Virus record (IMG/VR): IMGVR_UViG_3300021979_000001 | Location: 393,166 to 457,165 of that record | Length of the DNA stretch: 64,000 nt | From: a virus | Lineage: Duplodnaviria; Heunggongvirae; Uroviricota; Caudoviricetes | Direction: 5' to 3' (one strand) | Part shown: positions 1,422 to 24,357 of the stretch, one piece after another | How the letters are laid out: each line of letters begins with the position of its first letter | Position numbering within the stretch: the stretch's first letter is position 1 | Notes under the pieces: model-generated | Seen by the model: only the letters and a program-made list of their open reading frames with translations | What the model was told of the DNA's origin: nothing | Databases searched by the model: none | Program-made: the position numbers and the translations under genes

Positions 1422-1433
1422 GTTATATTATCC

Positions 1434-1958: not shown

Positions 1959-3132
1959 TCATAATTTCAACAACGCCAAAACCGTTGTCTGTTTTTTTAT
2001 TTATTGCTCTACCTATTGCAGTATACGGCATTGGATTATCGGATGCCTGTGCATACCCAGGGCAAGCACTTGTCACTAACAATTGTCCCGGATAAACGGT
2101 CCCTACTACTTTGCATGGAACTCTACCTTTAAGGGCAATTGCTGGGAAATAATCGTCAGAACCAGCAGATGCATTTAAAACATGGGCGGGTTCGGTGGAT
2201 ATAACACCCGCAACTGATCTGCTATTTTCATGCGTGCTAATGGTAACTTCTTTATCGCCACCAAGAATCATTACGGTGCCCGGTTCATATATTGCATCGG
2301 CTTCATACCGTTCCGCAATGTCAGCGGCATGCATAGCAAAGGTAGCGGTCCCGACAAAATTTTCTGCATACACCGTAGAAAAACTATTGGTATTTGAGCC
2401 AAGATTAATTGTGTTATTTGCATTTGGGATAACGTTTCCAGAAATCGTGCCACCGGACAATGGTAATTTGTCATCTAATTCTGGGACATCAACTGATAAT
2501 GTAACATTTGACGACCCATCAATCGATACGGTTCCCGATGCGTCACCGGATAATGACAATGAAAATGGATTTGTAAGTTTACTTGCGGTAGATGCATTAC
2601 CTAAAAATGAGGGTGCTGAAATATTTCCGGTAAAATATGCAACCCCGTTTTCTGCATGAATAATCGCATCGGCCCCACCCGTTTCAGAAATCAAAGTTAG
2701 TTTTGTTTTTACTGAAACCCCGGTTGGGTCTACTCCTAACTTGCGTTGTCCCTGGATTGACACTCCAACGAAATCAACACCTGCGTAAATACCTTTAGAC
2801 GGATCGCTATCATATGTAATACTGGGTTGCGATTCGGTTCCATCCGACATATAAAGTTTTGCGTTTTCTTCAAACAGAAGTGATCCGGTGATCGTTCCAC
2901 CGTCGATTTTTAAATAATCATTTAGGAACTCACCCATATATCCGAATGGACGCCATTCAAGATCACCGGCATCATTATGGGTATACGTTTCAATTCGACC
3001 ACTATCGCGACCAAAACGAATTGACCCAAGCATTGGGATTGTTGCATCACTGTTTGTTGACGGTAAAACGATTGACCGTCCTAAAACCACTAAATCACCC
3101 CCGGAGTGCCGAGTATCAATAATTCGCGTCAT
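1951..3132 (-). CDS. Tail fibre/spike protein with C-terminal intramolecular-chaperone (peptidase G2-like) domain
   Basis: ADIAERYEADAIYEPGTVMILGG...GVIST.PA...IALKGRVPCKV signature; LKIDGGTITG and LPLSGGTISG fibre motifs; start set to MTRIID downstream of a TAAATA promoter. Confidence 0.75.
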   Translation of the reverse strand: MTRIIDTRHSGGDLVVLGRSIVLPSTNSDATIPMLGSIRFGRDSGRIETYTHNDAGDLEWRPFGYMGEFLNDYLKIDGGTITGSLLFEENAKLYMSDGTESQPSITYDSDPSKGIYAGVDFVGVSIQGQRKLGVDPTGVSVKTKLTLISETGGADAIIHAENGVAYFTGNISAPSFLGNASTASKLTNPFSLSLSGDASGTVSIDGSSNVTLSVDVPELDDKLPLSGGTISGNVIPNANNTINLGSNTNSFSTVYAENFVGTATFAMHAADIAERYEADAIYEPGTVMILGGDKEVTISTHENSRSVAGVISTEPAHVLNASAGSDDYFPAIALKGRVPCKVVGTVYPGQLLVTSACPGYAQASDNPMPYTAIGRAINKKTDNGFGVVEIMIV

Positions 3133-3175
3133 AACGTAATAAACCTGTTGTTTTAAGTATTTATTCACAAACAAA

Positions 3176-3201
3176 GAAGACGCGGCCTGCGCCGCGTCTT
3201 C
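3176..3201 (-). terminator. Rho-independent terminator
   Basis: GAAGACGCGGC-4 nt loop-GCCGCGTCTTC 11-bp stem followed by a T-run on the minus strand, just after the 825-aa gene. Confidence 0.8.
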
Positions 3202-3238
3202 ATATTGTAGTTATAGTCCATTAGTCGTTATGATTGGA

Positions 3239-5716
3239 TTAACCAGCCAAATATTCAACGATGACTTTACCAGCACCGGTAGTAGCAGTTGATGCATCAG
3301 CAACAAGCTGCGTTGCAGTGTAATCCTGGGCAGCGTCTACAACGTAAATGCCGGTTGTTGCTTCATCAACATCGCTTGCCGAAGCAAGTTCATCGGTGGT
3401 AGCAGCAGAACCAACAGTAACGTCGCCATCAAATGCTGTGGTAACAATCACTTTAACACGCAGAACAGTTCCGGTAACAGTTGCACCAAGATTGACGCTC
3501 GAACCGGCAACCAGATCAACAACACGAGTTTTGACAGAACCAGAAACACTTGCGCTAACAGCGGACGAAACCGCGTCATCAACATAAGTTTTATTGGTAG
3601 CATCACCACCCGATGTTGGAGCAGCAACGTTAACAACACGTGTATCTGAAACATCAACAACACCGTCGCCTTTTGGTGCAAGTGTGAGATTGATGTCTGT
3701 TTCAGTTCCCGCCGCACCCAAAGTAACGGATGTGGTGCCGTTTGTTGCAGTAACATAACCGGTTGCAGAAGCCGAACCCAGGAAAGTCATGACAGCTTGA
3801 CTATCAGCATCCTGAATTTCAACAACGCCATCCGTGCCAGAACCGTTACCACCACGAAGAATGATATTACCTGCATCACCAGCAGCGTTATCACCACCAG
3901 CAAGAGTCAGATCGTAACCGTCTTCGGCCTGAATGAAACCGGCACCGGCATCACCGATAATAACCTGACCAGCACCCTGTGGGACAAGGCGAATATCAAC
4001 GTCATCAGCGGTTCCAGAAATTGCTTCAACTCGGACTTCACCAGCAGTGCCAAGATCAATCTGGAAGTTCGAATCTTGTGTATCACTGGTAACGATGTCA
4101 CCGACTTTAGTTTTGGTTCCGTCTACGTCACCGTAGAACTCAATCGCCCCATCAGCAGCTTTAACACTGGTCAGGGTATCAGCCGAAACGATTTCATCTG
4201 ATGACAAACCGTCCAGACTATCAACAACAGCTTTAATCTGTGTGTCAAGTGCAAGGTCAGCAGCACGGAATGATGTGGTTGAATCAAGGTAGTTCGAACC
4301 AGAAATTGTAGTGTAATCATCACCTGAAACACCAAGAGCAGTGTTCAAGTCGTCAATGCGACCACCAAGTGCGGTATCGGCATCGGCGCGATCAGATGAT
4401 TCTGACAGAATATCCGCAGCATTACCAGATACAGCGGAGTCAAGAGCGGTCAGCGCATCTACGATAGTAGTTGCGGAACCAAGATAATCGGTGCCAGTGA
4501 ACGATGCCAGAGTGCCATCTGTTTCAAGACCAACCGCAGTTTCGATTGCATCGATTTCAGTCTGCAAGCCAGTTGCACTTGAATCTTCTTCGAGAGCAAC
4601 AACACGAGCCTTGAACGCCGCATCAATATCAACGGTGTAACCGGTATCAGAAGAACCAGTAACCGAAACATAATCAGTGGTGCCAAGAACAACGGAGTTG
4701 GTGTTGTCGATAACATCCCAGCCATCACCAGAATTTTTAACAAGACCATCGTTTGCGTTAGCATAAATGCTTACGGTTTCTTCGGACCCGTTAACATACT
4801 TGAAGTAACCAGAAGTAGAAACCTTGTAGTAATCACCGGCATCTTTACCACCAGCAGACAGACCATCAAGATCAAATGCATTTTCTTCATCAACGCCACC
4901 AGCAAGGTTGGAGACATAATTGAATGCATTACCAAGACCATTAATAGCAGTGTCAACATACAATTTGGTTGATGCATCGGCATCGTTTGTTGGGGCAGCA
5001 AGGCCAGTCAGCTTAAAGCCGCCCATATCCTGATCACCAGTAAATGCTACTGATCCGTCTTTCTTAATGACTTCGCCATCAAGAGTATCAATGTTACCCT
5101 GTAATGTGGTATCTGCATCCGCACGGTCTGATGCTTCTGAAAGAATATCAGCAGCATTGCCAGAAACCGCAGTATCAAGGGCAGTCAGCGCATCTACGAT
5201 AGTAGTTGCGGAACCAAGATAATCGGTGCCAGTGAACGATGCCAGGGTGCCGTCTGTTTCGAGACCAACCGCAGTTTCAATTGCATCGATTTCAGTCTGC
5301 AAGCCAGCAGTATCATTACCTTCAAGCGTTGTAACGCGATCCGATACAGCCTGTAATGCGGTATCAAGTAATGTGTCCGCATTGAAAAGTGATGTTGCGG
5401 TATCGATGTAGTTTGCAGATTCCGATGCGGTATACGCACCGTCGGTGCCAAGCCCAGCGCCAGTCTGTGTTGCATCAACTTCACCTTGTAGTGAAGTGAT
5501 AATGCCATCAAGCGTTGAGGTCGCAGTATCAACATAGTCTTTGGTTGATGCATCGTTAGCAGATGTTGGTGTTGCGATCTGAATACGAGCAAATGCACTA
5601 TCTGCCGCATCACGAACCGAGAAAACACCGCCAGTCTGGGTCAGCTTTGCGCCGCCTTTACCAAACTGAACATTACTACCTACACCAACAAGACCAAAAT
5701 TTTTAATATTCGCCAT
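3239..5716 (-). CDS. Acidic virion structural/fibre protein with internal duplication
   Basis: 825 aa rich in D/T/A/G; three DA(S)TK.YVD fibre motifs; ~65-aa segment present twice; late promoter and SD upstream. Confidence 0.7.
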   Translation of the reverse strand: MANIKNFGLVGVGSNVQFGKGGAKLTQTGGVFSVRDAADSAFARIQIATPTSANDASTKDYVDTATSTLDGIITSLQGEVDATQTGAGLGTDGAYTASESANYIDTATSLFNADTLLDTALQAVSDRVTTLEGNDTAGLQTEIDAIETAVGLETDGTLASFTGTDYLGSATTIVDALTALDTAVSGNAADILSEASDRADADTTLQGNIDTLDGEVIKKDGSVAFTGDQDMGGFKLTGLAAPTNDADASTKLYVDTAINGLGNAFNYVSNLAGGVDEENAFDLDGLSAGGKDAGDYYKVSTSGYFKYVNGSEETVSIYANANDGLVKNSGDGWDVIDNTNSVVLGTTDYVSVTGSSDTGYTVDIDAAFKARVVALEEDSSATGLQTEIDAIETAVGLETDGTLASFTGTDYLGSATTIVDALTALDSAVSGNAADILSESSDRADADTALGGRIDDLNTALGVSGDDYTTISGSNYLDSTTSFRAADLALDTQIKAVVDSLDGLSSDEIVSADTLTSVKAADGAIEFYGDVDGTKTKVGDIVTSDTQDSNFQIDLGTAGEVRVEAISGTADDVDIRLVPQGAGQVIIGDAGAGFIQAEDGYDLTLAGGDNAAGDAGNIILRGGNGSGTDGVVEIQDADSQAVMTFLGSASATGYVTATNGTTSVTLGAAGTETDINLTLAPKGDGVVDVSDTRVVNVAAPTSGGDATNKTYVDDAVSSAVSASVSGSVKTRVVDLVAGSSVNLGATVTGTVLRVKVIVTTAFDGDVTVGSAATTDELASASDVDEATTGIYVVDAAQDYTATQLVADASTATTGAGKVIVEYLAG
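4449..5307. repeat. 124-bp intragenic direct repeat (4449-4572 and 5184-5307)
   Basis: Two copies with 4 mismatches counted by eye, all synonymous; both encode GLQTEIDAIETAVGLETDGTLASFTGTDYLGSATTIVDALT. Confidence 0.9.
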
Positions 5717-5868
5717 ACTGTTCTATCTCCTATAGGAACAATTTATTTTTAGAAGGCCACGAGTAAAATGCCACATCTCATAATATACAAGATATGGCAC
5801 TCTAACTCATAATTATTTATTTAGTTATTTAGCGAATAATCTTCATACGTAATTAATAACAATGGTTT

Positions 5869-7833
5869 TTAATTGTAACTAATTGTAATACGAACTTTTC
5901 CACTAGTAGATGATCCAGGATTGAATGAATATTTCAAATAAACATCAGTTCCCGCATCATAAGTATGCGTCGGTGTTGTTGTATACTCGCCGATTACACT
6001 CAAATCATTTTCATCAGCATTCATTAAACGTTCCATGTCATCATCATCACCAACAGTAATAGTTGCATTGTCATCGTTGAATACTTCATCAACAGAAACA
6101 GTAACGAAATTAATTCGTGAACCATTTCCGACTTCACCCAGTGTTCCAACTTCATCAGATGAAATTGTTAAATCAACAAAATATGTATCACTATCCACTT
6201 TTGCTGTTTCTTCGGATGCAATCATTACCCATTCTGATCCATTGTAAAGATACACACCCCATTCATCATCTCCTTTATCAAGAACATATGCTTGATCACC
6301 TAACATTACATCAAGTGCGTCTCTAGATGCAATATTCGCGACAACATATGTTGTTGCTTGTCTGATACCTTGTTCAATATAAAGGGACGCGGCTTTAATA
6401 CCATTCTCTGACGAAAACAGTCCTAGATCAGATAATGTTGTTCCAGTGACATCTACTAAATTAATTGCACGGGCATCATCTGCTTCAAGATGAACATATG
6501 TATTTGTTGATGCTCCGGTGCTTAACGGTAATCCTGATGCCGATCCTGTTCCAGCAAAGGAAGTTCCATTTGTGTCCAATGTTCCGTTAACAATCGTAAT
6601 TGACCCACCACTTGTTTCAGTAATAACCAATTTACCATCACTGGTAGACGCCACAATATTAGGAATATTCGCTGCATTAATATCAACAGCCATGTCTTCC
6701 TCAACGGCCAATTCAATACCATACTGCGAGAAACCGGTAGCAAATGTAGTGAATGTAACCGATACCCCATTGATTGTTGCCGTTGCGTTTGGTCCGGCAG
6801 ATGGTGCATATATTGCCGGTTCCCCATAGGCCATGCTTAATGATGATTCAATTACCGTTGGTGCAACAACAGACGATGCTGTAACACCATGACTCGATGT
6901 TTCCGTGTTAACTGCATTGATAAAATCAAGACTTGACCCACCAGATAATGTAAGTTCAACACCATTGACTGAAAACTTATTTCCACTGGATGTTGTGCCA
7001 CCTGCTACTGATCCGGTTACAGTGGATTTCGTGAAATCACGAATTTTCATCATAACCGGAGTTGGGCCAGGTGTTGTTGTCAGATTACCGGCATTTGCCG
7101 AGTCCGCATAAAGAATATCACCAACATTACCTGGTAAATAATCGTTATTATCGAGAACCTTTTGAATTGGGTTAATCATAAACATGTTCGGACCAAGACC
7201 GGTATAACTAACGGTTCCCACCATTTGTGGGTGATCTGAATCGGTTGCAACAAAAGTATTGGTTTCAGGATCAACCGAAATTACTTGCCCATCGAAAAAC
7301 CCATGATTTTCTTTTTCCAATGTAAAATTGACATCTGCTTCCAAATTTTGAAAACGAGAAGTCAGATTGGCAAAGAATACCGAACTCACACCACTTGATG
7401 GAATTGGGTCAATCACGGGAAGTCCATCTTCATTAACTTCAAAGATAATAACAAATGCCGGAATGGAAAAAATACCTTTACCATTACCTGTCGTATTTCG
7501 GAAAGTATTGTAACGCAATGTATCTTCAACCATGCACTTCAAATGTGTGTCAGATTTTTCAATAACATTGATAATTTTCAGCGCAACACCGGTTGAAATA
7601 TTGGCAACATAATCACCAACATTAACGTCCATGCCGTTAAATGCCTTTGGTTTACGTGTTGTTGTGCTGGAATGTGTCTGTTCGGTCACATCAATATCGA
7701 TTATCCATCGATAATCGGAGGGCGTAGCGCCCCCCGACCAATAAGGTGAACCATCATCGTAGGGCCACGCCCCGGCACCTGCCGAAGCAGACACAGCACC
7801 AGGGATGACTTTTGCAGGAATGTCGATATACAT
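5869..7833 (-). CDS. Virion structural protein (tail/baseplate-associated, hypothetical)
   Basis: 654-aa ORF with beta-rich T/G/S composition; INAANIPNIVAS...GKLVIT sheath/flagellin-like segment; lies within the structural operon. Confidence 0.6.
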   Translation of the reverse strand: MYIDIPAKVIPGAVSASAGAGAWPYDDGSPYWSGGATPSDYRWIIDIDVTEQTHSSTTTRKPKAFNGMDVNVGDYVANISTGVALKIINVIEKSDTHLKCMVEDTLRYNTFRNTTGNGKGIFSIPAFVIIFEVNEDGLPVIDPIPSSGVSSVFFANLTSRFQNLEADVNFTLEKENHGFFDGQVISVDPETNTFVATDSDHPQMVGTVSYTGLGPNMFMINPIQKVLDNNDYLPGNVGDILYADSANAGNLTTTPGPTPVMMKIRDFTKSTVTGSVAGGTTSSGNKFSVNGVELTLSGGSSLDFINAVNTETSSHGVTASSVVAPTVIESSLSMAYGEPAIYAPSAGPNATATINGVSVTFTTFATGFSQYGIELAVEEDMAVDINAANIPNIVASTSDGKLVITETSGGSITIVNGTLDTNGTSFAGTGSASGLPLSTGASTNTYVHLEADDARAINLVDVTGTTLSDLGLFSSENGIKAASLYIEQGIRQATTYVVANIASRDALDVMLGDQAYVLDKGDDEWGVYLYNGSEWVMIASEETAKVDSDTYFVDLTISSDEVGTLGEVGNGSRINFVTVSVDEVFNDDNATITVGDDDDMERLMNADENDLSVIGEYTTTPTHTYDAGTDVYLKYSFNPGSSTSGKVRITISYN

Positions 7834-7845
7834 TTAGTTTCCTTA

Positions 7846-10800
7846 TTAAAATTTAAACATGATCGCACATTGTGCGCGTTGCTGGAAACCAGCACCCGCA
7901 CCAGTATCCATCATACGAAGTTGAATAGTGAACCGTGAGAAGTTACCCATATATGTTGTGTTATCCCATGTTCCACCGGCCAATACTTTACGTGTGTCAA
8001 ACGATGTTGTGACGTTGGTATAAACCAGTTCATTCGTGGCAGTAACATGTCCCATAACCGCGATGGCGATTGGTGGGAATGCATGCCCGGTAAAGTTAAA
8101 TTCTACAATACAATTGGATGCATCGAGAATATTTACTTCAACACCGGATGATGTTGTTAATACTGGATCAGCAACATCAAACGTCCCACCAGCACCAGAT
8201 GAATAACGGAAAACAACAAATTCATTTTGTTCAACGTTTGATGATCCACCCGGAACCGTGACGGTTGTTACACCATCTTCATCGGTGACCGTAACACCGT
8301 TACCAACGAAGTTAAGGGTATCAGCCAATGAAACAACTTCGGTTCCTTCATCCTGAACCGCAATCCCACCAGAACCACCGGTTCCATTTGAAATTTCGGT
8401 TATACGACCTTTACTATCAACCGTAACATTTGCGTTTGTATAAGAACCGGATGTTACGCCGGTTTCGGACAGTGACGTAATAATCGAAGTTGTGCCAGAA
8501 CCAGTAATGTCACCCGAAAGAGTGGTTGTTTGATTTGCAGTCAGGTAACTCACATTGGATGCAGCAGTTACACGACCTTTTGCATCAACCGTAACATTAT
8601 TATAGGTTCCACCAGTAACACCCGTATCCGTAAGACCAATAATAAATGTTCCTTCGGTTGTCACCGGACCACCCGTCACACTAACATCACTTGTTCCAGC
8701 AGCATCAACCGATGTTACCGTTCCCGTGCCCGCTAATCCCGATGCATCGATAGTGATGGTGTTTGTGCCTTCAACCAGGGTGATGTTTTCGCCTGCAACA
8801 AGTGATTTAAATTGCAAATCAACATCAGCTTTTGCTTTGAAAATGCCAGCACCGGTGCCAACATTCGAAGCAGTATTGATTTCACCATAGTTTTCATTTG
8901 TTGCATCGGTAATACGACCATATGGATCAACAGTAACACTGTTGTATGTTCCAGCTTCAACACCGGTTTCGGACAGGCTGATTTCAATTTCACCAGTATC
9001 CGTAATCGGGCTACCGGCAATTTCAATACCATTATACCCAGATGCAGCGACCGAATGAACTGTGCCATAATCAACAAGCGTTGCCGCAGTCACACGACCT
9101 TGTGCATTAACCGTTAAACGATTATATGTTCCAGCAGTAACACCTGTATTAGCAAGACCAATTGATAATGTCCCGCTTTCAGTAATCGGACTACCAACAA
9201 CAGTAATACCATTGCTACCTGTAGCTGCAACCGACGTTACTGTTCCAGTGGCAGAACCAGCAAGTGCATCAATCAAGATAACACCGTTTGATTCCGTAAT
9301 GGTAACACCATCACCACCCGTTAAGGATTTAAATTCCAAATCAGCATCAGTTTTCTGATAAAAGACACCTACCCCGCCAGAAACGTTCGATGCTGTATTA
9401 ACTTCGCCGACACCAGTAACAGTTGCAGTCGATGTAATGGTAATCTCGCCTGTTTCGGAATCTTCTGTAACAGTAATATTATCACCGGCAACAATGGATT
9501 TAAACTGTAATTCATCCAGTTCTTTGCCCGCGTAAATACCAGTGCCATCACCGAGATTGCGACCATTGCTAATATCACCATAAACAACGTTTGTTGCAGA
9601 AATCACACGACCTTGTTGATTAACCGACACTTTATTATATGTGCCCGGCGTAACCGCAGTATCATCCAGTGTAACGGTAAATGTCCCAGTATTAGTGATT
9701 GGTCCACCAGTTACGGAAATACCACCAGCACCTTCTGCATCCACGCTATAAACGGGAGATGGACCAGACGCAGCATATGTAATGCGACCGTAATCATCAA
9801 CAGTGATAGAAGCAATATCATAACTTCCCGCAGTCACCCCGGTTGTTTTTGCATCAATCTCTATGCTGTTTGTTGTTTCTGTTAATTCAATGACATCGCC
9901 ACCCAGTAACGACTTGAAATGTAATTCAGCATTTACTTTGTTTTTGAATACACCAACACCAGACCCGTCATTTACACCGACGTTAACTTCACCCGAATCC
10001 AATGGATTTTCAACAATTTCGGTAATACGACCATACTGATCAACCGTCACCGTTGGGATATTATATGTCCCGGCTGTTACCCCAGACTGATCTAGAGCAA
10101 CGGTGAAATTTGTATCATTATCTTCATCGACACTGGAAACATCCATCCCGGCACCAGCGGTTATCGTGGTTGTATGACCAAGAGATGGTGCGCTAATTGT
10201 AAGTGTGGTTCCATTGTCGGATATACCAATCCCGCTACCAGGAACCAGTGATTTAAACTGTAAATTTGTTCCCGATTTCTGATAATATGTTCCAAATCCA
10301 CCAGTGCCAACATTTGATGCGGTATTTGCTTCACCAATAGGTTGAACGGTAGCCGCAGTCACACGACCTTGTGCATTGACGGTTAAGCTATTATACGTTC
10401 CAGGCGTAACGCCAGTAGAAGACAAACTTACGTTAAAACTACCGGAATCAGTGATGGTTGTATCACCACTAACCGTAATACCATTTGTTCCAGTAACACC
10501 AACCGATGAAACACTCGCGGGAGTTGATATAACAATTTCAGTAACATCTTGTGTTATTTCAATGTTATCACCAGCAACGATGCTGCGTAATTGATATGGT
10601 GTTGTTCCCGTGCGGTATACTGTTGCACCACTACCAACATTTGAAATGGTGTTAGATTGCATCGCAGTTACACGACCATATGAATCAACCGTGACCGATG
10701 GGTAATGATATGTGCCAGATGTTACGCCAGTAGCAGATAATCCAATCGCGAAGTTACCCGTTGTGGTGATTGGACCACCGGAAACAGTAACACCATTCTG

Positions 10801-12279
10801 ACCAGTTGCCGTGACACTTTTAACCGTTCCGGTTGCGCCATTCAGCGTAATTGTTGCAGTCCCATTACTTTCGGTAACAGTTAATGCATCACCAACAATA
10901 TTCAGATTTTTGACATCCGTTCCGACTTGTGTCCCTTCTTCAAGCACAGTCAGTCCCGAAAACTGATTTTCCAGAATTCCGCTTGCATCAATGATAACAT
11001 CCGACTCGGATTCAGTAACATCGATACCACCAGTCCCAACAATACGACGGAATTGTAAATTTTGGCCGCTTTTTCCAAAGAATATATTTGCGGAACCATC
11101 ATCACTTTCAGAAAGATTTTCACCCGCTGTCACAATTGGATTTGGTGCCGCACTAGTAACACGACCTTTATTATCGACAACAATGGTAGGTGCAACATAT
11201 GTTCCAGCCGTAACACCGCTTGTCCCAAGCGCGACATTGAAACTACCACTACCAGTAATTGTGCTTCCCGTAACGACAACACCATCACTGCCGGTCAAAC
11301 CAACGCTCGATACCCCAGCAGACCCGTTAGTAACGGAAATCAACCGTCCTTGTGCGTCAACCGTAACATTTGCATTGGTATAAGACCCGGCAGTAACACC
11401 AGTATCCGTTAATCTGATTGCCAAAGTGCCAGTATCGGTTATTGGACCACCCGTAACAGATACGCCATGACTCCCCTGGGCAGCAACTTCTGTTACCCCG
11501 GTTGTCGAGACTGTAACTTCGTTTGCCGTTGAGGTGATGGTGGTGTTTCCAGAACCTTTAAGGGTCTTGAACTCCAACGCAGTTCCATTTTTAGTTGAGT
11601 ATACACCAACACCAGACCCAACATTTGCCCCCGTATTAATTTCACCAAGGGTGTTTGTTGACGCCGATGTAACGCGACCTTGTGCATCAATGGTAACAGT
11701 TGGTGCTGTGTAAGTTCCTGGGGTTACGCCGGTGCTTGACAGACCAATAGAGAGCGAACCAGACTGGGTAATTGGGCTTCCTGATACAACGACCCCATTC
11801 TGACCAGTTGCGCCAACAGATGTCACTGTTCCGCTTGTTTCTGGTGTCCACTCGAATGACGTTCCGTTCCATTTAAGGACAACATTTGCACTACTTGGTG
11901 CAGTAATAAAATCAAGTTCATCTTCCGACACCCCATAAAGGATTCCCTTCGGAATAATCGAAGCAGGGGCTTCAACAATCGATGAAAAATTAATAGTGTC
12001 TAATCCACCCACCGCTTTAATGGTGATAGTCGATCCATCTTCTGACAAAACGATGCCATCACCAGCGACGACTGATTTAAAATCCAGAACAACGTCGGAT
12101 GATCCGTTTGTTCCCATGAATAGGCCATACCCGACACCTAGATTGTGACCGGTGACTGATTTTACGCTAGGTTTTGCTGTCGTTGTTTCTGTTCCAGTGC
12201 TTGACGAACCCGAAGTTGTTCCTTCATATGTCACTTGTCCTGTCCCAGATGTAATACGACCATTTCCAATAGTTGGCAT
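7846..12279 (-). CDS. Long repeat-rich tail fibre protein
   Basis: 1477 aa built from three interleaved modules: TVTSV.A.G..G..V.G.PIT..G, GVT.GTY...TVD..GRVT.A and GE.NT..NVG.G.G....K....L.FKSL..G. Confidence 0.75.
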   Translation of the reverse strand: MPTIGNGRITSGTGQVTYEGTTSGSSSTGTETTTAKPSVKSVTGHNLGVGYGLFMGTNGSSDVVLDFKSVVAGDGIVLSEDGSTITIKAVGGLDTINFSSIVEAPASIIPKGILYGVSEDELDFITAPSSANVVLKWNGTSFEWTPETSGTVTSVGATGQNGVVVSGSPITQSGSLSIGLSSTGVTPGTYTAPTVTIDAQGRVTSASTNTLGEINTGANVGSGVGVYSTKNGTALEFKTLKGSGNTTITSTANEVTVSTTGVTEVAAQGSHGVSVTGGPITDTGTLAIRLTDTGVTAGSYTNANVTVDAQGRLISVTNGSAGVSSVGLTGSDGVVVTGSTITGSGSFNVALGTSGVTAGTYVAPTIVVDNKGRVTSAAPNPIVTAGENLSESDDGSANIFFGKSGQNLQFRRIVGTGGIDVTESESDVIIDASGILENQFSGLTVLEEGTQVGTDVKNLNIVGDALTVTESNGTATITLNGATGTVKSVTATGQNGVTVSGGPITTTGNFAIGLSATGVTSGTYHYPSVTVDSYGRVTAMQSNTISNVGSGATVYRTGTTPYQLRSIVAGDNIEITQDVTEIVISTPASVSSVGVTGTNGITVSGDTTITDSGSFNVSLSSTGVTPGTYNSLTVNAQGRVTAATVQPIGEANTASNVGTGGFGTYYQKSGTNLQFKSLVPGSGIGISDNGTTLTISAPSLGHTTTITAGAGMDVSSVDEDNDTNFTVALDQSGVTAGTYNIPTVTVDQYGRITEIVENPLDSGEVNVGVNDGSGVGVFKNKVNAELHFKSLLGGDVIELTETTNSIEIDAKTTGVTAGSYDIASITVDDYGRITYAASGPSPVYSVDAEGAGGISVTGGPITNTGTFTVTLDDTAVTPGTYNKVSVNQQGRVISATNVVYGDISNGRNLGDGTGIYAGKELDELQFKSIVAGDNITVTEDSETGEITITSTATVTGVGEVNTASNVSGGVGVFYQKTDADLEFKSLTGGDGVTITESNGVILIDALAGSATGTVTSVAATGSNGITVVGSPITESGTLSIGLANTGVTAGTYNRLTVNAQGRVTAATLVDYGTVHSVAASGYNGIEIAGSPITDTGEIEISLSETGVEAGTYNSVTVDPYGRITDATNENYGEINTASNVGTGAGIFKAKADVDLQFKSLVAGENITLVEGTNTITIDASGLAGTGTVTSVDAAGTSDVSVTGGPVTTEGTFIIGLTDTGVTGGTYNNVTVDAKGRVTAASNVSYLTANQTTTLSGDITGSGTTSIITSLSETGVTSGSYTNANVTVDSKGRITEISNGTGGSGGIAVQDEGTEVVSLADTLNFVGNGVTVTDEDGVTTVTVPGGSSNVEQNEFVVFRYSSGAGGTFDVADPVLTTSSGVEVNILDASNCIVEFNFTGHAFPPIAIAVMGHVTATNELVYTNVTTSFDTRKVLAGGTWDNTTYMGNFSRFTIQLRMMDTGAGAGFQQRAQCAIMFKF

Positions 12280-12333
12280 TTGGTATCCTCCAAATAAATT
12301 ACTTTTGTTCTATTTATTCCCAACCACGTTTAG

Positions 12334-12735
12334 TTAGAAACACAACACAATACGATTAATTGTCCCAAAAAGTGTAACTTCGCGCTCGCCCGCCATATCA
12401 TCCAAAATATATGATCGATCCAAGATTGCCCGCACCCAAAGATATTTTCCTTGGAACGTATATCCAACAGCATGTGTTTCATTCGGGATTGATGGATTTC
12501 TTGGAAATTCAATTGTATGATTGCCATCCAATGGAACGGAAAACCAATCAGTATCTAATGGTTCCAGGGCCAACGATGCTTCGATGCTTATTTTACCGTG
12601 CAACGCATTGGGGTAAATAACAACAGTATGCAATCCGTTGTGTCCATTATACCACCCGCCCGATTTAACAGGTTCGCCAACTACGTTTATTTCGTAGCCT
12701 GTATTGTTCATTAGAATGGAATTTGGTCGCTTCAT
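12334..12735 (-). CDS. Hypothetical late/virion protein
   Basis: 133-aa ORF preceded by TAAATA (12761-12767). Confidence 0.6.
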   Translation of the reverse strand: MKRPNSILMNNTGYEINVVGEPVKSGGWYNGHNGLHTVVIYPNALHGKISIEASLALEPLDTDWFSVPLDGNHTIEFPRNPSIPNETHAVGYTFQGKYLWVRAILDRSYILDDMAGEREVTLFGTINRIVLCF

Positions 12736-12839
12736 GACATCACTTCAAAGGGTTATGTCTTATTTATTATACCTTGACCCTAAATAACGCCTATGATAGC
12801 CTTTTTAAAAATTTTCGTTAACTACAAATTGAGATTGTA

Positions 12840-13577
12840 ATGTCATATGTTCACGAAGAATTACCAGTCCTGGATAATCCATACTTCGAAATTATAAAAT
12901 TTATTGAACCAATCTTGGATATGGAAACCGGGCCTTGGCTTGCCGGGGGTATGATGCGTAGATATTTATGCAATACTGATATATCAGAAGAATTTGATAT
13001 TGATATTTTTTGTGCCAATTCAAATAAAATGAATAGTGCATGTGATAAACTGAATAGTATAATCTGTAAAAATATAGATAATTTTGAAATCACCACATAT
13101 CGACATTTAAGTAAAAGTCATAATGCGTTAAGTCTTAATGTATGTAGTGGTGCATTTTATGAAATGGTCAACAGAACAAGACACAAATCAAATCGCAGAA
13201 AGGTAACCATTCAGTTTATTGATGCAAGCCGTTCATTGCATGATACTGAAAATGATATGGTCCCAAAAATATACGACACGAAGGACATCAACCCAACTCA
13301 TATTTTGGATCGATTTGATTTTACAATTTGTCAGTTTCTTACTGATGGCAAAACGTTGATGTCTGGGAAAACATCAAAACAAGATTTGTCCAATAATATG
13401 CTGGTGTTACACGAAATGAGGTATACCCGACCATCGCTTAATCGTGTTTCAAAATATATGAAAGCAGGATATATTGCACCACCAGGGACATTATCTACTG
13501 TATTTCGTCTGAATACCCCACTTGAAAAGAAGAATATTTATTGTGCTTCTGGTATTATCTTATATGGAAATTACTGA
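12840..13577 (+). CDS. Nucleotidyltransferase (tRNA CCA-adding/poly(A) polymerase head-like)
   Basis: GPWLAGGMMR...DIDIF (GG..R...DxD) and later DRFDFTIC (RDFT-like) motifs. Confidence 0.65.
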   Translation: MSYVHEELPVLDNPYFEIIKFIEPILDMETGPWLAGGMMRRYLCNTDISEEFDIDIFCANSNKMNSACDKLNSIICKNIDNFEITTYRHLSKSHNALSLNVCSGAFYEMVNRTRHKSNRRKVTIQFIDASRSLHDTENDMVPKIYDTKDINPTHILDRFDFTICQFLTDGKTLMSGKTSKQDLSNNMLVLHEMRYTRPSLNRVSKYMKAGYIAPPGTLSTVFRLNTPLEKKNIYCASGIILYGNY

Positions 13578-13578
13578 C

Positions 13579-14136
13579 ATGTTTAAAAATTTGTTCAATA
13601 AAAATCCCATAACAGAAACAGTTGATATTAAAAAATCAACATTACAAGAATACGAAAATAAACCCAAATTTGATTTTAATTGTATTACCTATGATATTAT
13701 TAAACCATATCTTACCATGTCTATTCTGGTTGAGTATCCGATAATAGCGTGTGTTATGCATGATAACATCATTATGCCACTCGTTTTTTCTCGGGGTGTT
13801 GTGGTTACCTACCCAGACTATATCGCGTTGTTATCATACGTCACCGGGCCAGCATCTACTATGAATGAATCGCTAGTTGCTATTGAAAAAATTATTGGTG
13901 TTCAGTCAAAACGTTTGATGTCTATCGCGCTCAACAATAGGCAACTAGCATCACAAATTGGTAACACGAGATTGTTTATCATCAACAAGAATGTTTATGA
14001 CTCGTTGATAAACAATATCAACGAGTCAATTCGTAATAATAAAGATGATAATATAGTTTTAGATAATTTCATTAATTACATTAAACACATCGAAAATCAA
14101 TACAAGATAGCATGGGATGAACCACTAAAAATTTAA
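13579..14136 (+). CDS. Hypothetical protein
   Basis: ATG 1 nt after the previous stop (MFKNLF...); followed by a terminator. Confidence 0.6.
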   Translation: MFKNLFNKNPITETVDIKKSTLQEYENKPKFDFNCITYDIIKPYLTMSILVEYPIIACVMHDNIIMPLVFSRGVVVTYPDYIALLSYVTGPASTMNESLVAIEKIIGVQSKRLMSIALNNRQLASQIGNTRLFIINKNVYDSLINNINESIRNNKDDNIVLDNFINYIKHIENQYKIAWDEPLKI

Positions 14137-17570: not shown

Positions 17571-19832
17571 TTAGACGAGGATAATATCCCCATCTTTAAC
17601 ATCAACCGTGCAATCACCGCCATGTTCCAGATTTCCCATGATCATTTTCCGTGCCAACGGCGTTTTGATCGCATCGTTGATGACACGGGACATCGGACGC
17701 GCACCATAATCTGGATCAAACCCTTTGTCCGAAAGCCATTTCTTCGCATCCGGGGTGATTGTCAAATTGACATCGTTTTCTTTTGCATGGGCAACAACCT
17801 TAGCAAAAAACTTATCAACAATCATCAGCATCGTATCTTTTTCCAGACGATTGAAGACGATCACCTTATCAATCCGGTTGCGGAACTCCGGTGCATATTT
17901 CTTTTCAATCGCCGACTTTGCCGCTGTTGCCACATCAATTTGATGTCCCGAGCCGAATCCCAAGGGTTTCTTGCTCATTTCAAACGCACCGGTGTTGGTG
18001 GTCATGACAAGCACGGTATGTGAAAAGTCAATCGTTTTACCTTTTGTATTGGTAAGACGACCACCGTCCATCACCTGCAACAACAGGGTGAAAATATCGG
18101 GATGGGCTTTTTCAATTTCATCAAGGAGGATGACGCAGTGTGGGTTTTTTTCAACCTCACTGGTAAGTTTTCCACTCCCACTTGCTTCATCATACCCGAC
18201 GTAGCCAGGCGGAACACCGATCAACCGCGAAATTGAATGTTTTTCTTGGTATTCGGACATATCAAACCGCAACAGTTTAAGCCCAAGTGTTTCGGCAAGC
18301 TGTTTGGTTGCTTCTGTTTTCCCAACACCGGTGGGGCCAGCAAACATGAAACAACCCAAGGGTTGGTCATGGTCCCGCAACCCAGCACGGGCAACAATCG
18401 TTGCATCAACAAGATTTGAGATTGCGGTGTCTTGCCCGAAAACGACTTTTTTCAAGTCATCTTCCAACGTTAAGATTTTCTCCCGTTCACCTTCTGTGAT
18501 CATCTTTGCAGGAATGTTGGCAATTCGCGCAACTTCTGCCTGGATGTCGGCCAACGTGATTACTTTATCTGACCGATCAGACAGAGAAATTTCAGCCCCG
18601 ACTTCATCCATAACGTCAATGGCCTTATCAGGCAAATGTTTATTGACAATATGTCGGGTTGCCAATGACACCGCCGCATGAACCGCCTCGTCCGAATATT
18701 TGACATTGTGGAAATCCTCATAGTAGGGTTTAAGCCCCATCAGGATTTCAACCGTGTCGTCATAGTTCGTTTCTTCAATGGTCAGTTTCTTGAACCGACG
18801 AGCCAGCGCGGCGTCTTTTTCAACATGAAGGGTATATTCATCATGCGTCGTTGCACCGATACAACGGATCGTGCCATTGGCAAGGCCAGGTTTCAAGATA
18901 TTGGCAACGTCAAGTGCTGATCCGCCGCCAGACCCGGCACCAAGCATCGTGTGAATTTCATCAATGAAGATAATCGAATCGGGTAGAATTGCCAATGACT
19001 CTGCAATCTGCTTGACACGTTCCTCCATTTCACCACGATATTTTGTTCCGGCAATCAACGAACCCATGTCCAGCGACCAGATTTGTTTGGTTGATATGCT
19101 GCTTGGCACATCACCATTCACGATCTTCATCGCCAATCCTTCTGCTACCGCAGTTTTACCCACGCCCGGTTCACCAACCAACATAACATTGGATTTCTTT
19201 TTCAGGTGGAGGATTTTAACCAGCCGGTCAATTTCGGTTGAACGACCGATCAATGGATCGATCTTTCCAACGGGCATTTCATTCAGATTTTTGCAATATT
19301 TACGCAGACATTTGTCAGCTTCATCCGGCGATGTGATACTTTTCGCCGCACCACCGATACCTTCGGCCAGTTCTTTTTCGCGACGATCCAGATTCAACGC
19401 AGACTGCATTGCCGCAAGATCAATCCCCATATCCGATAGCATTTTCATGCCGACTTCATCGGAGATCATATGTGGCGTTTGATCAATGATATAGGTGATG
19501 CCCAAGATCAAGTCTGCGCCAGTGCAATCGGAACGACCCCGCAGCGCCCCATTTCCAACAACATATTGGATAAGGTCTTTCGCGCCCTTGTTTTGTTTCA
19601 CTTCACCGTAATGGGAAGTGGGAATTTGACAATAATGATCATCAATATTCGAGATCATCTCGTCGATGTCGTCATCCGTGATTTCGGGATTTGCCGCTTT
19701 AATGCTGGCACGAGCATCGTCATCATCCAATGCTGACAGCAAAAAATGATCGAGATTCACGAACTTAGATTTATAATGTGCTGCATATTTAAATGCAGCG
19801 TCCACCAATCCTTGAATTTTTTCGTGCGACAT
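17571..19832 (-). CDS. clpA: ATP-dependent Clp protease ATP-binding subunit ClpA-like (Hsp100)
   Basis: Clp-N domain; two AAA+ modules (GEPGVGKT/IFIDEIH and GPTGVGKT/LLDEIEKAHP); no ClpB middle domain; LGF ClpP-docking loop; GARP sensor. Confidence 0.92.
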   Translation of the reverse strand: MSHEKIQGLVDAAFKYAAHYKSKFVNLDHFLLSALDDDDARASIKAANPEITDDDIDEMISNIDDHYCQIPTSHYGEVKQNKGAKDLIQYVVGNGALRGRSDCTGADLILGITYIIDQTPHMISDEVGMKMLSDMGIDLAAMQSALNLDRREKELAEGIGGAAKSITSPDEADKCLRKYCKNLNEMPVGKIDPLIGRSTEIDRLVKILHLKKKSNVMLVGEPGVGKTAVAEGLAMKIVNGDVPSSISTKQIWSLDMGSLIAGTKYRGEMEERVKQIAESLAILPDSIIFIDEIHTMLGAGSGGGSALDVANILKPGLANGTIRCIGATTHDEYTLHVEKDAALARRFKKLTIEETNYDDTVEILMGLKPYYEDFHNVKYSDEAVHAAVSLATRHIVNKHLPDKAIDVMDEVGAEISLSDRSDKVITLADIQAEVARIANIPAKMITEGEREKILTLEDDLKKVVFGQDTAISNLVDATIVARAGLRDHDQPLGCFMFAGPTGVGKTEATKQLAETLGLKLLRFDMSEYQEKHSISRLIGVPPGYVGYDEASGSGKLTSEVEKNPHCVILLDEIEKAHPDIFTLLLQVMDGGRLTNTKGKTIDFSHTVLVMTTNTGAFEMSKKPLGFGSGHQIDVATAAKSAIEKKYAPEFRNRIDKVIVFNRLEKDTMLMIVDKFFAKVVAHAKENDVNLTITPDAKKWLSDKGFDPDYGARPMSRVINDAIKTPLARKMIMGNLEHGGDCTVDVKDGDIILV

Positions 19833-19923
19833 TGGTTATCCTTTAATTAACGATAATTAACGATGCTATTCTAGCACAAAATCACCAGCACACAATAGAT
19901 AAATGATTAATTATTGTGTGCTA

Positions 19924-20364
19924 CTATTTTTCAGGATGCCATCCCATTCCCTTGCGAACGATGTCATTGACTTTTTCAATACCATCGTTCTTGACTTTTT
20001 GGCATAAGGCAACATCCGCATCCGCCACATGATAGGCAAGATATTCAGAATACCAATACAATTCAATATCGATTTTATTCCGAATAGCTTCTGCTTCGGA
20101 CCATTCCAAAACCCCACCAATTGATTTTTCTTGATCAAACAGATAAGCATTGGCCGCCGAGATGTAACGACCAAGTTCGTTATATGTTTCGGCACATACA
20201 TCGCGTCCCTGAATATCTACAGGCTTGCGATTAATGGGAGCAACATCGGTGCTTGCCATCGCATCAGAAACGCAAAACATCCCCATCACGATACCAAGTG
20301 AGAGGACACGAAGGACCGGTTTCATGCGCAACACTTTTGAAAAAGTCATTTCACATTTTGTCAT
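19924..20364 (-). CDS. Hypothetical exported protein
   Basis: Signal-peptide-like N-terminus (VLSLGIVMGMFCVSDAMA). Confidence 0.55.
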   Translation of the reverse strand: MTKCEMTFSKVLRMKPVLRVLSLGIVMGMFCVSDAMASTDVAPINRKPVDIQGRDVCAETYNELGRYISAANAYLFDQEKSIGGVLEWSEAEAIRNKIDIELYWYSEYLAYHVADADVALCQKVKNDGIEKVNDIVRKGMGWHPEK

Positions 20365-20451
20365 ACCGTCCTCCTAAATTTTGGTCGTCTATATTTTCTA
20401 GTTCATTCATACCCGTTTTACGACGATTTGACAAGCAGAAAAACACAAAAA

Positions 20452-21231
20452 CTATTCGGATGGCGGATAAATTTCGTTTCGTATGCTTTGCAATTTACGT
20501 TTGTGTTTCTCCGACACCATCTTTGGTATTTCCAGTTCGATTATGACATAAAAATCACCTGGAATAGTTGCCGGTATCCCTTGGTTCTTCAAACGAACCA
20601 TATCATTGTGTCCCGAGCCGGATGGTATTGATACTTTTAGCTTTTTATTAGTCGGAGTGTTAACAATGATGTCACATCCAATCATAGCGTCGAACACATT
20701 GATCGTTCGAAGACAGAATACATCCTTTCCGCGAACAGTAAACCCATTATCAGGGGTAACATGTATCTTAAGGTTAATCGAACCATGTTGTTCGTTTGCC
20801 GGATAGTATAATACCTGACCATGAAACACGCCCTTTGGTATAGGGACACAGATGTCTTGGCCGTAGCAATTTATCAATATAGTATTTTCATTATAGCATT
20901 CAGACAATGGTATTGAATGCACCATATTTATTGGACGGGATTTTGCTTTTCGCAAAATATCATCCCATTCTCGCTGTTCTCTCTTATGTATATCATTCAG
21001 ATCGAAATCCATTTTCCATTTGTAATTTTCATATACTTTGGTTTTTGGATGGATTTTTTCATGGTTCTTAACGATAGCTTCATATGCATCATTAATTTCG
21101 CGAAATTTTGTTGCTGCGTCATCTGAACTATTATGATCTGGATGATATTTTTTTGCCATACGATAGTATGCTTTTTTTACATCATCGGGTGATGCATGTG
21201 GTAATAGACCAAGAACTGCATAATGATTCAT
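20452..21231 (-). CDS. DnaJ/CbpA-like co-chaperone
   Basis: J domain with HPD (YHPD); DnaJ C-terminal domain (LKVSIPSGSGHNDMVRLKNQGIP...GDFYV); no zinc finger. Confidence 0.88.
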   Translation of the reverse strand: MNHYAVLGLLPHASPDDVKKAYYRMAKKYHPDHNSSDDAATKFREINDAYEAIVKNHEKIHPKTKVYENYKWKMDFDLNDIHKREQREWDDILRKAKSRPINMVHSIPLSECYNENTILINCYGQDICVPIPKGVFHGQVLYYPANEQHGSINLKIHVTPDNGFTVRGKDVFCLRTINVFDAMIGCDIIVNTPTNKKLKVSIPSGSGHNDMVRLKNQGIPATIPGDFYVIIELEIPKMVSEKHKRKLQSIRNEIYPPSE

Positions 21232-21593
21232 TTTTGTGATCCAGATGCTCTATCTTTGATTGCACCAATCAAGAAATCATTAATATGCTTTTGTTCTTTT
21301 ATATATCGAGTGATTTCAGCCATATTGAGTGACAATTTTTCATATCCATCGGTTGTTAATGCAAAAATAACAAAATTAGTTTGACCGGATTTTTCCACAT
21401 TATCAATGAGTTTCTGTAATTCATCAAAGTTTAATACCAACCACGTTATGTCATTATTAAGTTGCATTGGTTGTGCTTTAGGAATAACCAACGGAAGTGT
21501 GGGCGGTGTTTGAATCTGAACCGGGGTATAATCTTCGGTAGTTGAACATGCTGTTAATAGCAACACCCATAATATAATAAAAAATTTATTCAC
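21228..21593 (-). CDS. Rz1/o-spanin-like lipoprotein
   Basis: Lipobox LLTA-C followed by a Pro-rich segment; overlaps the i-spanin-like gene. Confidence 0.65.
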   Translation of the reverse strand: MNKFFIILWVLLLTACSTTEDYTPVQIQTPPTLPLVIPKAQPMQLNNDITWLVLNFDELQKLIDNVEKSGQTNFVIFALTTDGYEKLSLNMAEITRYIKEQKHINDFLIGAIKDRASGSQK

Positions 21594-22008
21594 GGCTTAT
21601 TTTCTCCAAATCATTGATTGCATTTTTGGTCGCAGTATTAACGCGTTTTTCGATCAATCCTGGCTTATGCTGTGCAAGATCAGATAGGTTATGTTTTCGC
21701 AATAACAATTCAAGATTTTTTGAGTGTGATCGTTCCGTAGATAATTGACTATCTAGATTTTCAAGTCGGGCTGTGTCTTTTTTCGATAACTCAATGAGAT
21801 TCTTAATATTATTGTTAAGTGATTCATTTGATACTTTAAGTGATTTGTTTTCATCGCTTAATGTAGTCACGTTAGTAGTAAGAGAAGAAATTTTGCTTTG
21901 TGACCAGAAGAAATATGTGGCAGCAGAACCAATAAGAATAATTAATGCAAGGACACCAATACCGATAATCCATTTAGTGGGAATAATTTTAGAAATGAAA
22001 CCAAACAT
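21586..22008 (-). CDS. Rz/i-spanin-like protein
   Basis: Single N-terminal TM helix plus coiled coil, KPGLIEKRVN motif; late promoter TATAAATA at 22038-22045. Confidence 0.65.
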   Translation of the reverse strand: MFGFISKIIPTKWIIGIGVLALIILIGSAATYFFWSQSKISSLTTNVTTLSDENKSLKVSNESLNNNIKNLIELSKKDTARLENLDSQLSTERSHSKNLELLLRKHNLSDLAQHKPGLIEKRVNTATKNAINDLEKISRE

Positions 22009-22069: not shown

Positions 22070-23025
22070 GGCGTGAAACCACATTCGTATTACCTTGCGG
22101 TAATACTCATGCTGGTTCCCCACCCGTTTCACTTCGTAATGAACAATCATTGCTCTTACATCGCAATGACAGTTCATTACGAAGTGAAAAGTTTTTTACA
22201 GGAATTATTAGTTAGTAATGAATGATCATCAGTATGTGATAAAGAATTATCATTTGAATAATCGTTACTAACTTATGATATTTGATTTATAATTTTTATA
22301 TATGCATCCTAGATTTGTGTCATCTTTTTATCCCCCCTGTTGGCCCAATAATATCGTGTTCATCCTATAAGACATGGTTATACATAATCCTATAGGATGC
22401 CAACACGATATTATTAGACCAACAAAGAGGATAAATTTAGTGGGAAAAAATACTTCCTGAGTTCTTAGCCACTCTCAATAAAGCGACGTAACCACATTAC
22501 ATGGTTGCTGGCGGTTTTCCGAAACCAGCTTGTTGCCGCCCTTATCCGGTCAGTTAATCACACCCATATAGAGACAGTTCGGGGATTTACCTTGCCTGTC
22601 AGGTTGATTATCTATCGACCAAAACGGTTATGAAAATAATTTATGATTTTCAAGCGCATGCACCTGGCACAATTGAGGGACCGGTGCATGTGTATAGTTG
22701 TCAAAGATGTCTAGACATAGCTATACTCTTTCATCGTGCCTTTTTCCACAACGCAATGTGTGGCAAGCGGCTGTTTACATAATCGCGCCACCGTAAGTGT
22801 GGACTATGTAACCGGCTTGTTGCTCGTTCTTGCAGGTAAACCCCGGTCAGATGATCCCGGATGGACTTACTTTGGGACGAAAGTGGCCCCGATTACTTTC
22901 TGAACGTTATGAGGGTATCGTCGATACCAAAATTAATATATGACATATCGTCGATTTGGGTCAATATAAATGTTGACGACATAACCCATCCTGGATTAGC
23001 GTTTGCAGATTACGATTTTTGCCTG
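22070..23025. ncRNA. Candidate large structured non-coding element (ncRNA and/or origin)
   Basis: ~950 bp without a credible ORF; more than 10 helices, including an 18-bp perfect arm (22127-22189), a ~40-bp imperfect arm (22327-22435) and a long-range helix 22581-22595/22832-22844. Confidence 0.55.
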
Positions 23026-23045
23026 GATCACATGGAATGGAAGAT

Positions 23046-23675
23046 ATGACATTACGCAAATATATACGTAGTCTTGAAATAGCGAAGAATATGGGATGTT
23101 TCTTTGTTTCTTTCATCAATATGGCAAAAAACTCTGACAATATTGATCGGTTTGAGACGCGCATATTTATGTCAGCATCAAAAAACATATCGCGAAAACA
23201 TTGGGAAGTGAAATACAAGGTGGCCGATATGGCTAATATGATTACGATTGTCGTATACGAAAACAAGGTAAGTATATCTGGTCCACAAACATTATTTTCA
23301 ACAAGTAGATATTGGTCACGGCGTTTGTCCAAAACGATTAACCGCATTCATGGTATGAAAACAAACAACGGCCCACAAGTAGATATTGATATTAATAATA
23401 AAACCAATCTAGTTCAAGAATTTGTTGAAAAGTATAAAGCAAATATTAGCAATAACCGGATAACAGAACTATCATATAATCGATTTCCTTATTCGGTGAT
23501 CATCACGGCACCGGAATATGGCACGGTAGATTTTTTAATAGGCATTTCATCACAATTTGTTGGTGATTTCATGTATGCACGAAAAAATGATCAACATCAT
23601 CATATTGTCTATTTTGAAAAAAACGAGGATTTCACCTTAGCTAAACTATCATTAGATCGATTAAACAGAAATTAA
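23046..23675 (+). CDS. Hypothetical protein, paralogue family A copy 1
   Basis: Shares YWSRRL, ISSQF.G.FM and VYFEK.ED motifs with the next gene. Confidence 0.7.
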   Translation: MTLRKYIRSLEIAKNMGCFFVSFINMAKNSDNIDRFETRIFMSASKNISRKHWEVKYKVADMANMITIVVYENKVSISGPQTLFSTSRYWSRRLSKTINRIHGMKTNNGPQVDIDINNKTNLVQEFVEKYKANISNNRITELSYNRFPYSVIITAPEYGTVDFLIGISSQFVGDFMYARKNDQHHHIVYFEKNEDFTLAKLSLDRLNRN

Positions 23676-23751
23676 TAAAAACGTTGATGTAATTTTTAGT
23701 TAATGGATATTGGTGATCCGTTACGTGTGGTTTTTTGAAGGGGGCTGTTTC

Positions 23752-24357
23752 ATGCATTTCGATCAATTCAATAATTATTTCAATAGTCTGAAAATGTGTC
23801 GTAGCGTAGGTCGTTTTTTTGAACATTTTATTAAAATGACAAAAAACACTGACAACCTGCGAATGTTCACCAAAGTGGGACCGACTAAAAGCCCCCGAGA
23901 TGAATGGACAATTCAGTATTTGATTTCCGGTATAAACATCAAAATTGTTGTTTGTAACGATAACGTTTCGGTGTATGGAACCGAAAACATTGAATCAGAT
24001 AGTAAATATTGGTCACGGCGCTTGCGGCGGGTTATTAAACGCGTTTACGAACAACAAATCAAGAAATCTGATACTGAAATCATTCATAAAAATATGTTGC
24101 TTGATTTTGTCAATAAACATCACATTCGTGTCACGAATGATCTATTATTGAACCTTGCTAACTCGCCATTAGAATATAGTCACTGTTTGTCGGGTGGTAA
24201 ACGAGATGTCTGTGCGTATTTGTTTTCAATTTCATCGCAGTTTACCGGTAATTTTATGTTTTATCATAAAGATAGTTTGTCAACCATGGTTTATTTCGAA
24301 AAGGAGGAGGATGCCGTGTTAACGAAAATAGCTGTTGATAGGATGAATGGTAGTTAA
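23752..24357 (+). CDS. Hypothetical protein, paralogue family A copy 2
   Basis: GAAGGGGG SD before ATG 23752; motifs as in copy 1. Confidence 0.7.
   Translation: MHFDQFNNYFNSLKMCRSVGRFFEHFIKMTKNTDNLRMFTKVGPTKSPRDEWTIQYLISGINIKIVVCNDNVSVYGTENIESDSKYWSRRLRRVIKRVYEQQIKKSDTEIIHKNMLLDFVNKHHIRVTNDLLLNLANSPLEYSHCLSGGKRDVCAYLFSISSQFTGNFMFYHKDSLSTMVYFEKEEDAVLTKIAVDRMNGS

Follow-up and report, generated by a model that had tools for sequence, protein, structure and literature searches.

The locus and the RNA on its minus strand

The window, the 64,000-nt stretch of DNA analysed here, forms the final 64 kb of a 457,165-base virus record (G000). This record includes a T4-type major capsid gene along with 20 tRNAs and a permuted tmRNA. 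The nearest relative of its ClpA is that of Sinorhizobium phage Phosso, with Agrobacterium phage Atu_ph07 among the next matches; we infer an alphaproteobacterial host. The RNA element described below occupies a 1-kb gap between leftward spanin, dnaJ and clpA genes on one side and rightward ORFs of unknown function on the other (Table 1). The phage DnaJ and ClpA genes adjoin the spanins at 17571–21231; the same spanin/DnaJ/ClpA order is found in Phosso and Atu_ph07, neither of which has the RNA at that position. Two neighbouring ORFs of ~215 aa (23019–23675 and 23710–24357) are alike at their N-termini, have no Pfam or PHROG match and are possibly paralogues. Elsewhere in the record, the tmRNA lies at 160209–160554, far from an SmpB-like gene (200082–200510, near RNA copy B), and a single TnpB/Cas12f-like gene (164198–164398, in a 436-aa open frame) is unlinked to any copy of the RNA. 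The left end of the record (1–14000) is strongly skewed, and its right end (window 56400–64000) contains many short minus-strand ORFs.

A preliminary description had proposed a large non-coding RNA of ~550 nt on the plus strand at 22480–23025. This interval indeed has no credible ORF and is richer in GC than its surroundings (0.43–0.44 versus 0.29–0.37); the listed stem arms exist, with the long-range pair located exactly at 22581–22595/22832–22844. The proposal was right in that the locus holds a real structured RNA, and wrong about strand and ends. The gene-free stretch is predicted to encode an intricately folded RNA of ~620 nt on the minus strand, from ~22928 to 22307, and the whole unit, from promoter to downstream hairpins, spans ~22964 down to ~22075. 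The 3′ part that had been missed (22463–22075), with its twin tags, G-run hairpin, AT-rich stretch and primosome-site-like hairpins, is the part that carries the functional clues.

Table 1. Features of the RNA unit and adjoining genes (window coordinates)
Feature	Position	Strand	Remark
Sigma-70-type promoter, TTGACC-18-TATATT	22935..22964	−	Position conserved in copies
Predicted transcript, ~620 nt up to tag 2	22307..22928	−	Start placed from the promoter
5′ H-type pseudoknot	22875..22900	−	Both stems covary among full-length copies
Central conserved domain	22624..22765	−	Covariation
AAAGGCAC motif, central domain	22736–22745	−
Interrupted hairpin with invariant UUUGA, central domain	22699–22705	−
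Invariant UAACCG, central domain	22624–22632	−
Other central-domain parts: variable hairpin; 7-bp hairpin		−	Loop of the 7-bp hairpin may pair weakly with GGC
Three-way junction	22478..22541	−	Covariation
GNRA-capped stem in the three-way junction	22507–22529	−
Hairpin with YRUARA loop in the three-way junction	22490–22505	−
Tag 1, RACUC and copy-specific tail	22455..22463	−
3′ hairpin, C/U-rich 5′ arm and G-rich 3′ arm	22327..22435	−
G6 run of the 3′ hairpin	22332–22337	−
Tag 2, RAUCU and tail identical to that of tag 1	22307..22315	−
AT-rich stretch directly after tag 2	22195..22305		Candidate unwinding element
Two DNA hairpins	22127–22189 and 22075–22118	−
Two spanins, dnaJ, 146-aa ORF, clpA (downstream)	17571..22008	−

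The plus strand had been argued from a G–U bias; this bias does not hold across the family, where strand-neutral helices have 22 G–U against 21 A–C cells. We assign the RNA to the minus strand because of its promoter, its GNRA and UNCG tetraloops and its 3′ hairpin. The promoter lies inside the right end of the interval first proposed, and one stem of the preliminary description (22961–22977) overlaps the −35 box, outside the transcript. A TTGAC box with a properly spaced −10 box occurs at the same place in nine of 13 full-length copies by a strict pattern (background ~0.01 per 60 nt) and also in the held-out G041 copy; three further full-length copies have TTGAC at this position with a variant −10. 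Across the family, stems capped by GNRA or UNCG number 26 on the minus strand versus nine on the plus strand. The conserved loop of the stem at 22507–22529 is GNRA on the minus strand only, in ~14 of 17 copies and in several variants, and the 3′ hairpin loops of homologues E and F read UUCG and GCAA on that strand. The consensus fold energy is −35.4 for the minus strand versus −29.1 for the plus strand.

Proof of the structure comes from covariation, not from folding energy. The interval 22480–23025 alone folds only modestly better than its shuffles (z −2.05 plus, −2.10 minus), and the z of −7.4 for 22300–22930 is mostly due to the 3′ hairpin. Among 16–17 homologues, 31 of the 43 tested pairs (named helices, tool alignments) have changed on both sides, 12 of 17 in the three-way-junction alignment and 19 of 26 in the central-domain alignment, counts that carry no kinship correction. 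Chance covariation is unlikely, since column identity in the two alignments is 64% and 58%, with several pair types per column. The central-domain alignment is 88.8% paired, while slid controls reach only 28–53%; the covariation score was attained by none of 500 shuffles, and the alifold energy of −35.4 compares with −3.5 ± 2.3 for column shuffles. The 5′ pseudoknot covaries, as does a long-range helix 5′ of it.

Several stems of the preliminary description are backed by the homologues (22657–22690, 22692–22726, 22746–22763 and 22490–22505). Its long-range pair, present in the window, is kept only partly in homologues when read by eye. The bases of its GGCGG/CCGCC stem belong instead to the GNRA-capped stem at 22507–22529, and the arms of GGTTGAT/ATCGACC appear by eye to pair with 22540–22570. 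Copies H, I and P have an extra hairpin, with a loop resembling that of a tRNA T-arm, inserted in the variable arm of the RNA.

Members of the family and their 3′ module

Three further copies of the RNA were found in G000, at 126, 199 and 306 kb. Further members came from model and pattern searches: three copies in G001 (608 kb), four in G040 (complete, 578 kb), two in G041 (a 415-kb fragment), one in G042 and four distinct metagenome copies. The family thus has 18 members, from five jumbo phages and metagenomes, plus a divergent partial copy in G004; G000, G001 and G040 each carry three or four widely spaced, diverged copies. The divergent copy (G004 108.3–109.2 kb, minus strand) keeps the core and the downstream GAGCG hairpins, has lost the standard tags and has TATAAAT in place of the TTGAC promoter. 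At 351.67–352.16 kb of G001 there is a reduced copy; its tags are intact, and it is missing the domain that lies between UAACCG and the three-way junction. Copies are orthologous in place: the window copy and that at 389.6 kb of G040 both precede dnaJ, and in G000, G001 and G040 alike one copy is flanked by a HAD-like gene and an exonuclease gene. The element was therefore inherited in place. One metagenome copy is on a bacterial contig, after a DUF6538 (integrase-type) gene, a position that the Rep-free replicon of a mobile island might have.

Searches of seven complete records of related phages, and of Phosso, GAP32, XbC2 and PA5oct, detected no member. The synteny search via spanin and ClpA gave no close relatives, BLAST against phages and plasmids gave no match, three pattern scans gave chance matches or none, and a scan of bacterial genomes gave 37 chance matches and no members. 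Searching Rfam with the window copy and two homologues returned nothing relevant at the gathering threshold or at E 10. The preliminary description had not recognised a tRNA, tmRNA, RNase P RNA or group I/II intron, and the catalytic-core and family models of tmRNA, RNase P and group I/II introns did not match; the models of GOLLD, ROOL, OLE, HEARO, ARRPOF and raiA gave no match even at E 10. The RNA is an uncatalogued family of large multi-helix non-coding RNAs.

Behind the core, the copies share a 3′ module of fixed order: RACUC with a tail (tag 1), a G-run hairpin of variable length (70–150 nt) and RAUCU with the same tail (tag 2). The two tails share on average 5.8 nt within a copy versus 2.3 nt between copies (permutation p < 5e-5, conservative since one copy was mis-parsed as zero). 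Searched without the core, the tag–hairpin–tag pattern retrieves, in G000, G001 and G040, the 11 copies and nothing else; in G041 it finds both copies and two imperfect extra matches. Promoter, tags and hairpin are all present at the held-out copy of G041. Since no part of the RNA shows covariation with the tail, the simplest common partner of the tails would be the template DNA strand. The best candidate for an internal guide, the loop at 22706–22716, was rejected: copies F and H share the loop and differ in their tails.

Tag 2 is followed by an AT-rich stretch, above the local mean in all 15 of 15 copies (AT 0.93 versus 0.63 locally in the window copy). Most copies have, 50–130 nt further downstream, an AGCG/GCGA-rich DNA hairpin on the transcript strand; such hairpins are kept behind the divergent G004 copy as well. 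Likeness to primosome sites is clear in most GC-rich homologues, while in three of the four G000 copies, including that of the window, the words are weak, degenerate or absent. The window hairpins (22075..22189), degenerate as they are, match the primosome-site-like hairpins of the homologues in position and in a GCGA/GAGC core.

The word GAGCG-N1-3-AGCGA, derived from these phage loci, lies just downstream of five of nine copies in G001, G040 and G041, among 21 genome-wide matches. In ColE1, where its position is independent of that derivation, it occurs once, at 1332, on the RNA II strand and ~135 nt past the origin. The best local ColE1 match of three copies is 1303–1355, each alone not significant; this interval is downstream of the ColE1 origin, where ssiA lies. 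The layout of the origin is given in PMC3167613.

RNA-primed replication as the proposed function

We propose, with a probability of about 0.6, that each copy is an RNA-primed, ColE1-like origin of DNA replication with an ornate pre-primer RNA. Evidence comes from the fold, strand, promoter conservation, tags and downstream motif described above, as well as from the spacing of copies and base skew in three genomes.

Copies are spaced more widely or evenly than random in G040 (p 0.005, gaps of 121–172 kb) and G000 (p 0.047), with p 0.10 in G001. Skew was taken as G+T at four-fold sites, with codon-box and coding-strand effects removed, at scales of 30 and 15 kb and excluding the left end of G000. 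At 30 kb the corrected skew rises across 11 of 11 copies in G000, G001 and G040, sites that are not independent because these phages are related. The joint rotation test of the skew step gave p 1e-4 at 30 kb, or 3e-5 when stratified by gene strand, and a weaker p 0.002–0.008 at 15 kb. The G000 profile has four interior peaks, and these coincide with the four copies of that genome. The sign of the skew is independent of RNA direction and therefore fits net bidirectional replication. Peaks lacking an RNA copy are also seen (G001 110–140 kb and 250–270 kb, G040 30–50 kb) and are candidates for other origins. In the held-out G041, a 72%-complete fragment with one copy 32 kb from its end, the test was null at both copies (−0.005 and −0.002, percentile ~0.6), and this failure caps our confidence in the origin reading.

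The scheme that we envisage presumes transcription, a hybrid, trimming and the use of PriA. RNA polymerase with sigma-70 would transcribe ~620 nt leftward from 22928, from the promoter recognised by its conservation. The transcript would fold into the pseudoknotted core and 3′ G-run hairpin that covariation shows, and the hairpin would place tag 1 beside tag 2. Since the two tails are identical, tag 1 could base-pair, at tag 2, with the DNA template while the polymerase advances; this pairing would nucleate a lasting RNA–DNA hybrid in the AT-rich stretch, with tag 2 as its proposed start. By analogy with ColE1, RNase H would trim the hybrid to a 3′-OH primer for extension. The displaced strand would expose the downstream hairpin, where likeness to ColE1 ssiA suggests helicase loading, probably by host PriA, leading to lagging-strand or bidirectional synthesis. 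Three or four spaced origins would shorten the replication of a 450–600 kb genome. All carriers tested encode a DnaB-type helicase; PriA was undetected in them, as was gp59 in a search run without a positive control. RNase H was found in two of four carriers, and the host enzyme could serve.

In ColE1 the RNA made from a promoter 550 bp upstream enters a persistent hybrid. RNase H spares a few hybridised bases, which serve as primer, and the helicase is loaded onto the displaced strand (PMC5043065) through PriA and a primosome assembly site, pas (PMC5778457, PMC3167613). Promoter, RNA of 600–680 nt, G-run hairpin, AT-rich stretch and hairpin match in order and strand (PMC5043065, PMC3167613). 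With ColE1/pMB1 (NC_001371) the phage unit shares its own sigma-70 promoter ~550–680 nt upstream, a structured non-coding transcript, a 3′ hairpin that carries a G6 run and closely precedes the switch, an AGCG/GCGA hairpin downstream on the transcript strand and the lack of an adjoining Rep gene.

The differences are also considerable. The phage RNA has no sequence homology to RNA II; a distant relationship was rejected, with no HMM match and profile z of −0.2 to −0.7. Not being its homologue, the phage RNA could at most work like RNA II. Unlike RNA II, it has a heavily pseudoknotted core with invariant bases, and these invariant unpaired bases exceed what a ColE1-type primer is known to need. 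Primer formation in ColE1 uses G-run pairing; instead of a repeated G run the phage copies have copy-specific twin tags. They also differ in the AT-rich stretch and in number, with several copies per genome. No RNA I or Rop partner was seen with the phage RNA, and the Rfam RNAI model gave no match.

Phage T4 likewise has more than one origin, such as oriF and oriG, at which transcription primes replication through an R-loop next to an unwinding element; these use middle promoters and gp59 loading. The arrangement proposed here for T4-like phages, multiple transcription-primed origins with an unwinding element, is similar; it differs in the undetected gp59 and in the conserved RNA fold, T4 origin transcripts not being known to have one. 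Structured RNA motifs of regions needed or predicted for plasmid replication are also known, ARRPOF and PAGEV (PMC5737381). They are likewise tied to replication, which is proposed here, but are shorter (223–349 nt), plasmid-borne and without an Rfam match to the phage RNA.

The literature searched gives no established account of how replication starts in T4-like jumbo phages of 450–600 kb, and the RNA family supplies named, testable candidates. If the origin reading holds, the RNA would be one of the earliest cases of a large ornate RNA from bacteria or phages to which a function is assigned, its copy-specific twin tags would offer a sharp means of studying template capture by nascent RNA, and a Rep-free origin with programmable tags could be useful as a replicon part.

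Other readings and a related unit in Atu_ph07

The RNA could instead act in trans, as a scaffold, cage or protein sponge in the manner of GOLLD or ROOL, with the downstream hairpins as transcription-end or unrelated signals. Like GOLLD, ROOL and OLE, it is large, multi-junction and pseudoknotted, and GOLLD and ROOL are phage-associated; its size, pseudoknots and T-loop-like inserts resemble those of ornate RNAs (bioRxiv 10.1101/2024.12.08.627333), it has its own promoter, and the genes flanking different copies are unrelated. We still consider a trans-acting role unlikely. It leaves unexplained the even spacing, the skew switches, the twin tags and the ssiA-like hairpin on the transcript strand, and the phage RNA differs from those RNAs in having a fixed downstream DNA module and no tRNA linkage, its copies not being near tRNA clusters.

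Many invariant unpaired bases, together with two junction-like sites that have identical tails and flank a hairpin of free length (70–150 nt), would suit a ribozyme acting at the tags, one that excises or circularises the 3′ hairpin, makes its own 3′-OH primer or nicks DNA at tag 2. Such activity would be compatible with an origin, yet no internal guide covaries with the tail, the models of group I and group II introns and of small ribozymes do not match and no domain-V-like triad was seen by eye; we judge it distinctly improbable. A long shot of about the same order is that the ornate core serves origin firing as a catalyst or an active clamp and that the twin tags hand the RNA 3′ end to the template DNA, where it would cut itself or the displaced strand for a priming 3′-OH without RNase H or primase. 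If this were true, the core would make a ribozyme-driven replication origin, and the tags, hairpin, AT-rich stretch and pas could make up an origin module general to phages and supplied by more than one RNA fold (compare Atu_ph07 below).

A non-autonomous mobile element, or an RNA of an RNA-guided or reverse-transcriptase system (IS110 bridge RNA, TnpB/IscB RNA, retron), is very improbable. Multiple copies, a direct repeat between the RNA and adjacent DNA, and the bacterial-contig copy beside an integrase-type gene would be expected of it, but positions are orthologous between phages, G000 has no RVT_1 and the four carriers no IS110, and TnpB is present in one carrier only, distant from the copies. 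No retron, DRT, IS110 or TnpB partner gene linked to the RNA was found. Three other candidates were rejected: a miniature 16S/23S rRNA mimic (short look-alike words on both strands; pairwise and profile tests not above shuffles, z −1.4 to 2.0 in 16 tests), resemblances by eye to hammerhead, RNase P and group II domain V/VI words (not kept across the alignment) and a retron-like use of the hairpin as cDNA (no RT, and the entire unit on one strand).

The proposed origin module also has a counterpart in the cultured phage Atu_ph07 (MF403008.1). On its minus strand, from ~155 across the record end to 489850, lies an unannotated non-coding unit of ~440 nt which does not match the core model and has both tags, at ~490096 and ~490016 and with a common 6-nt tail that is new, a G6 hairpin, an AT-rich stretch and two AGCG-repeat hairpins, so the downstream hairpins are kept there too. 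Because Atu_ph07 has the module behind a different RNA, the module may be older or wider in distribution than this RNA fold, and its presence in a cultured phage makes the origin reading testable. A second Atu_ph07 match, to R2 at 53 kb, falls within an ORF and was discarded as chance. Just upstream of the ~440-nt unit we observed a TATAAATA-type promoter word.
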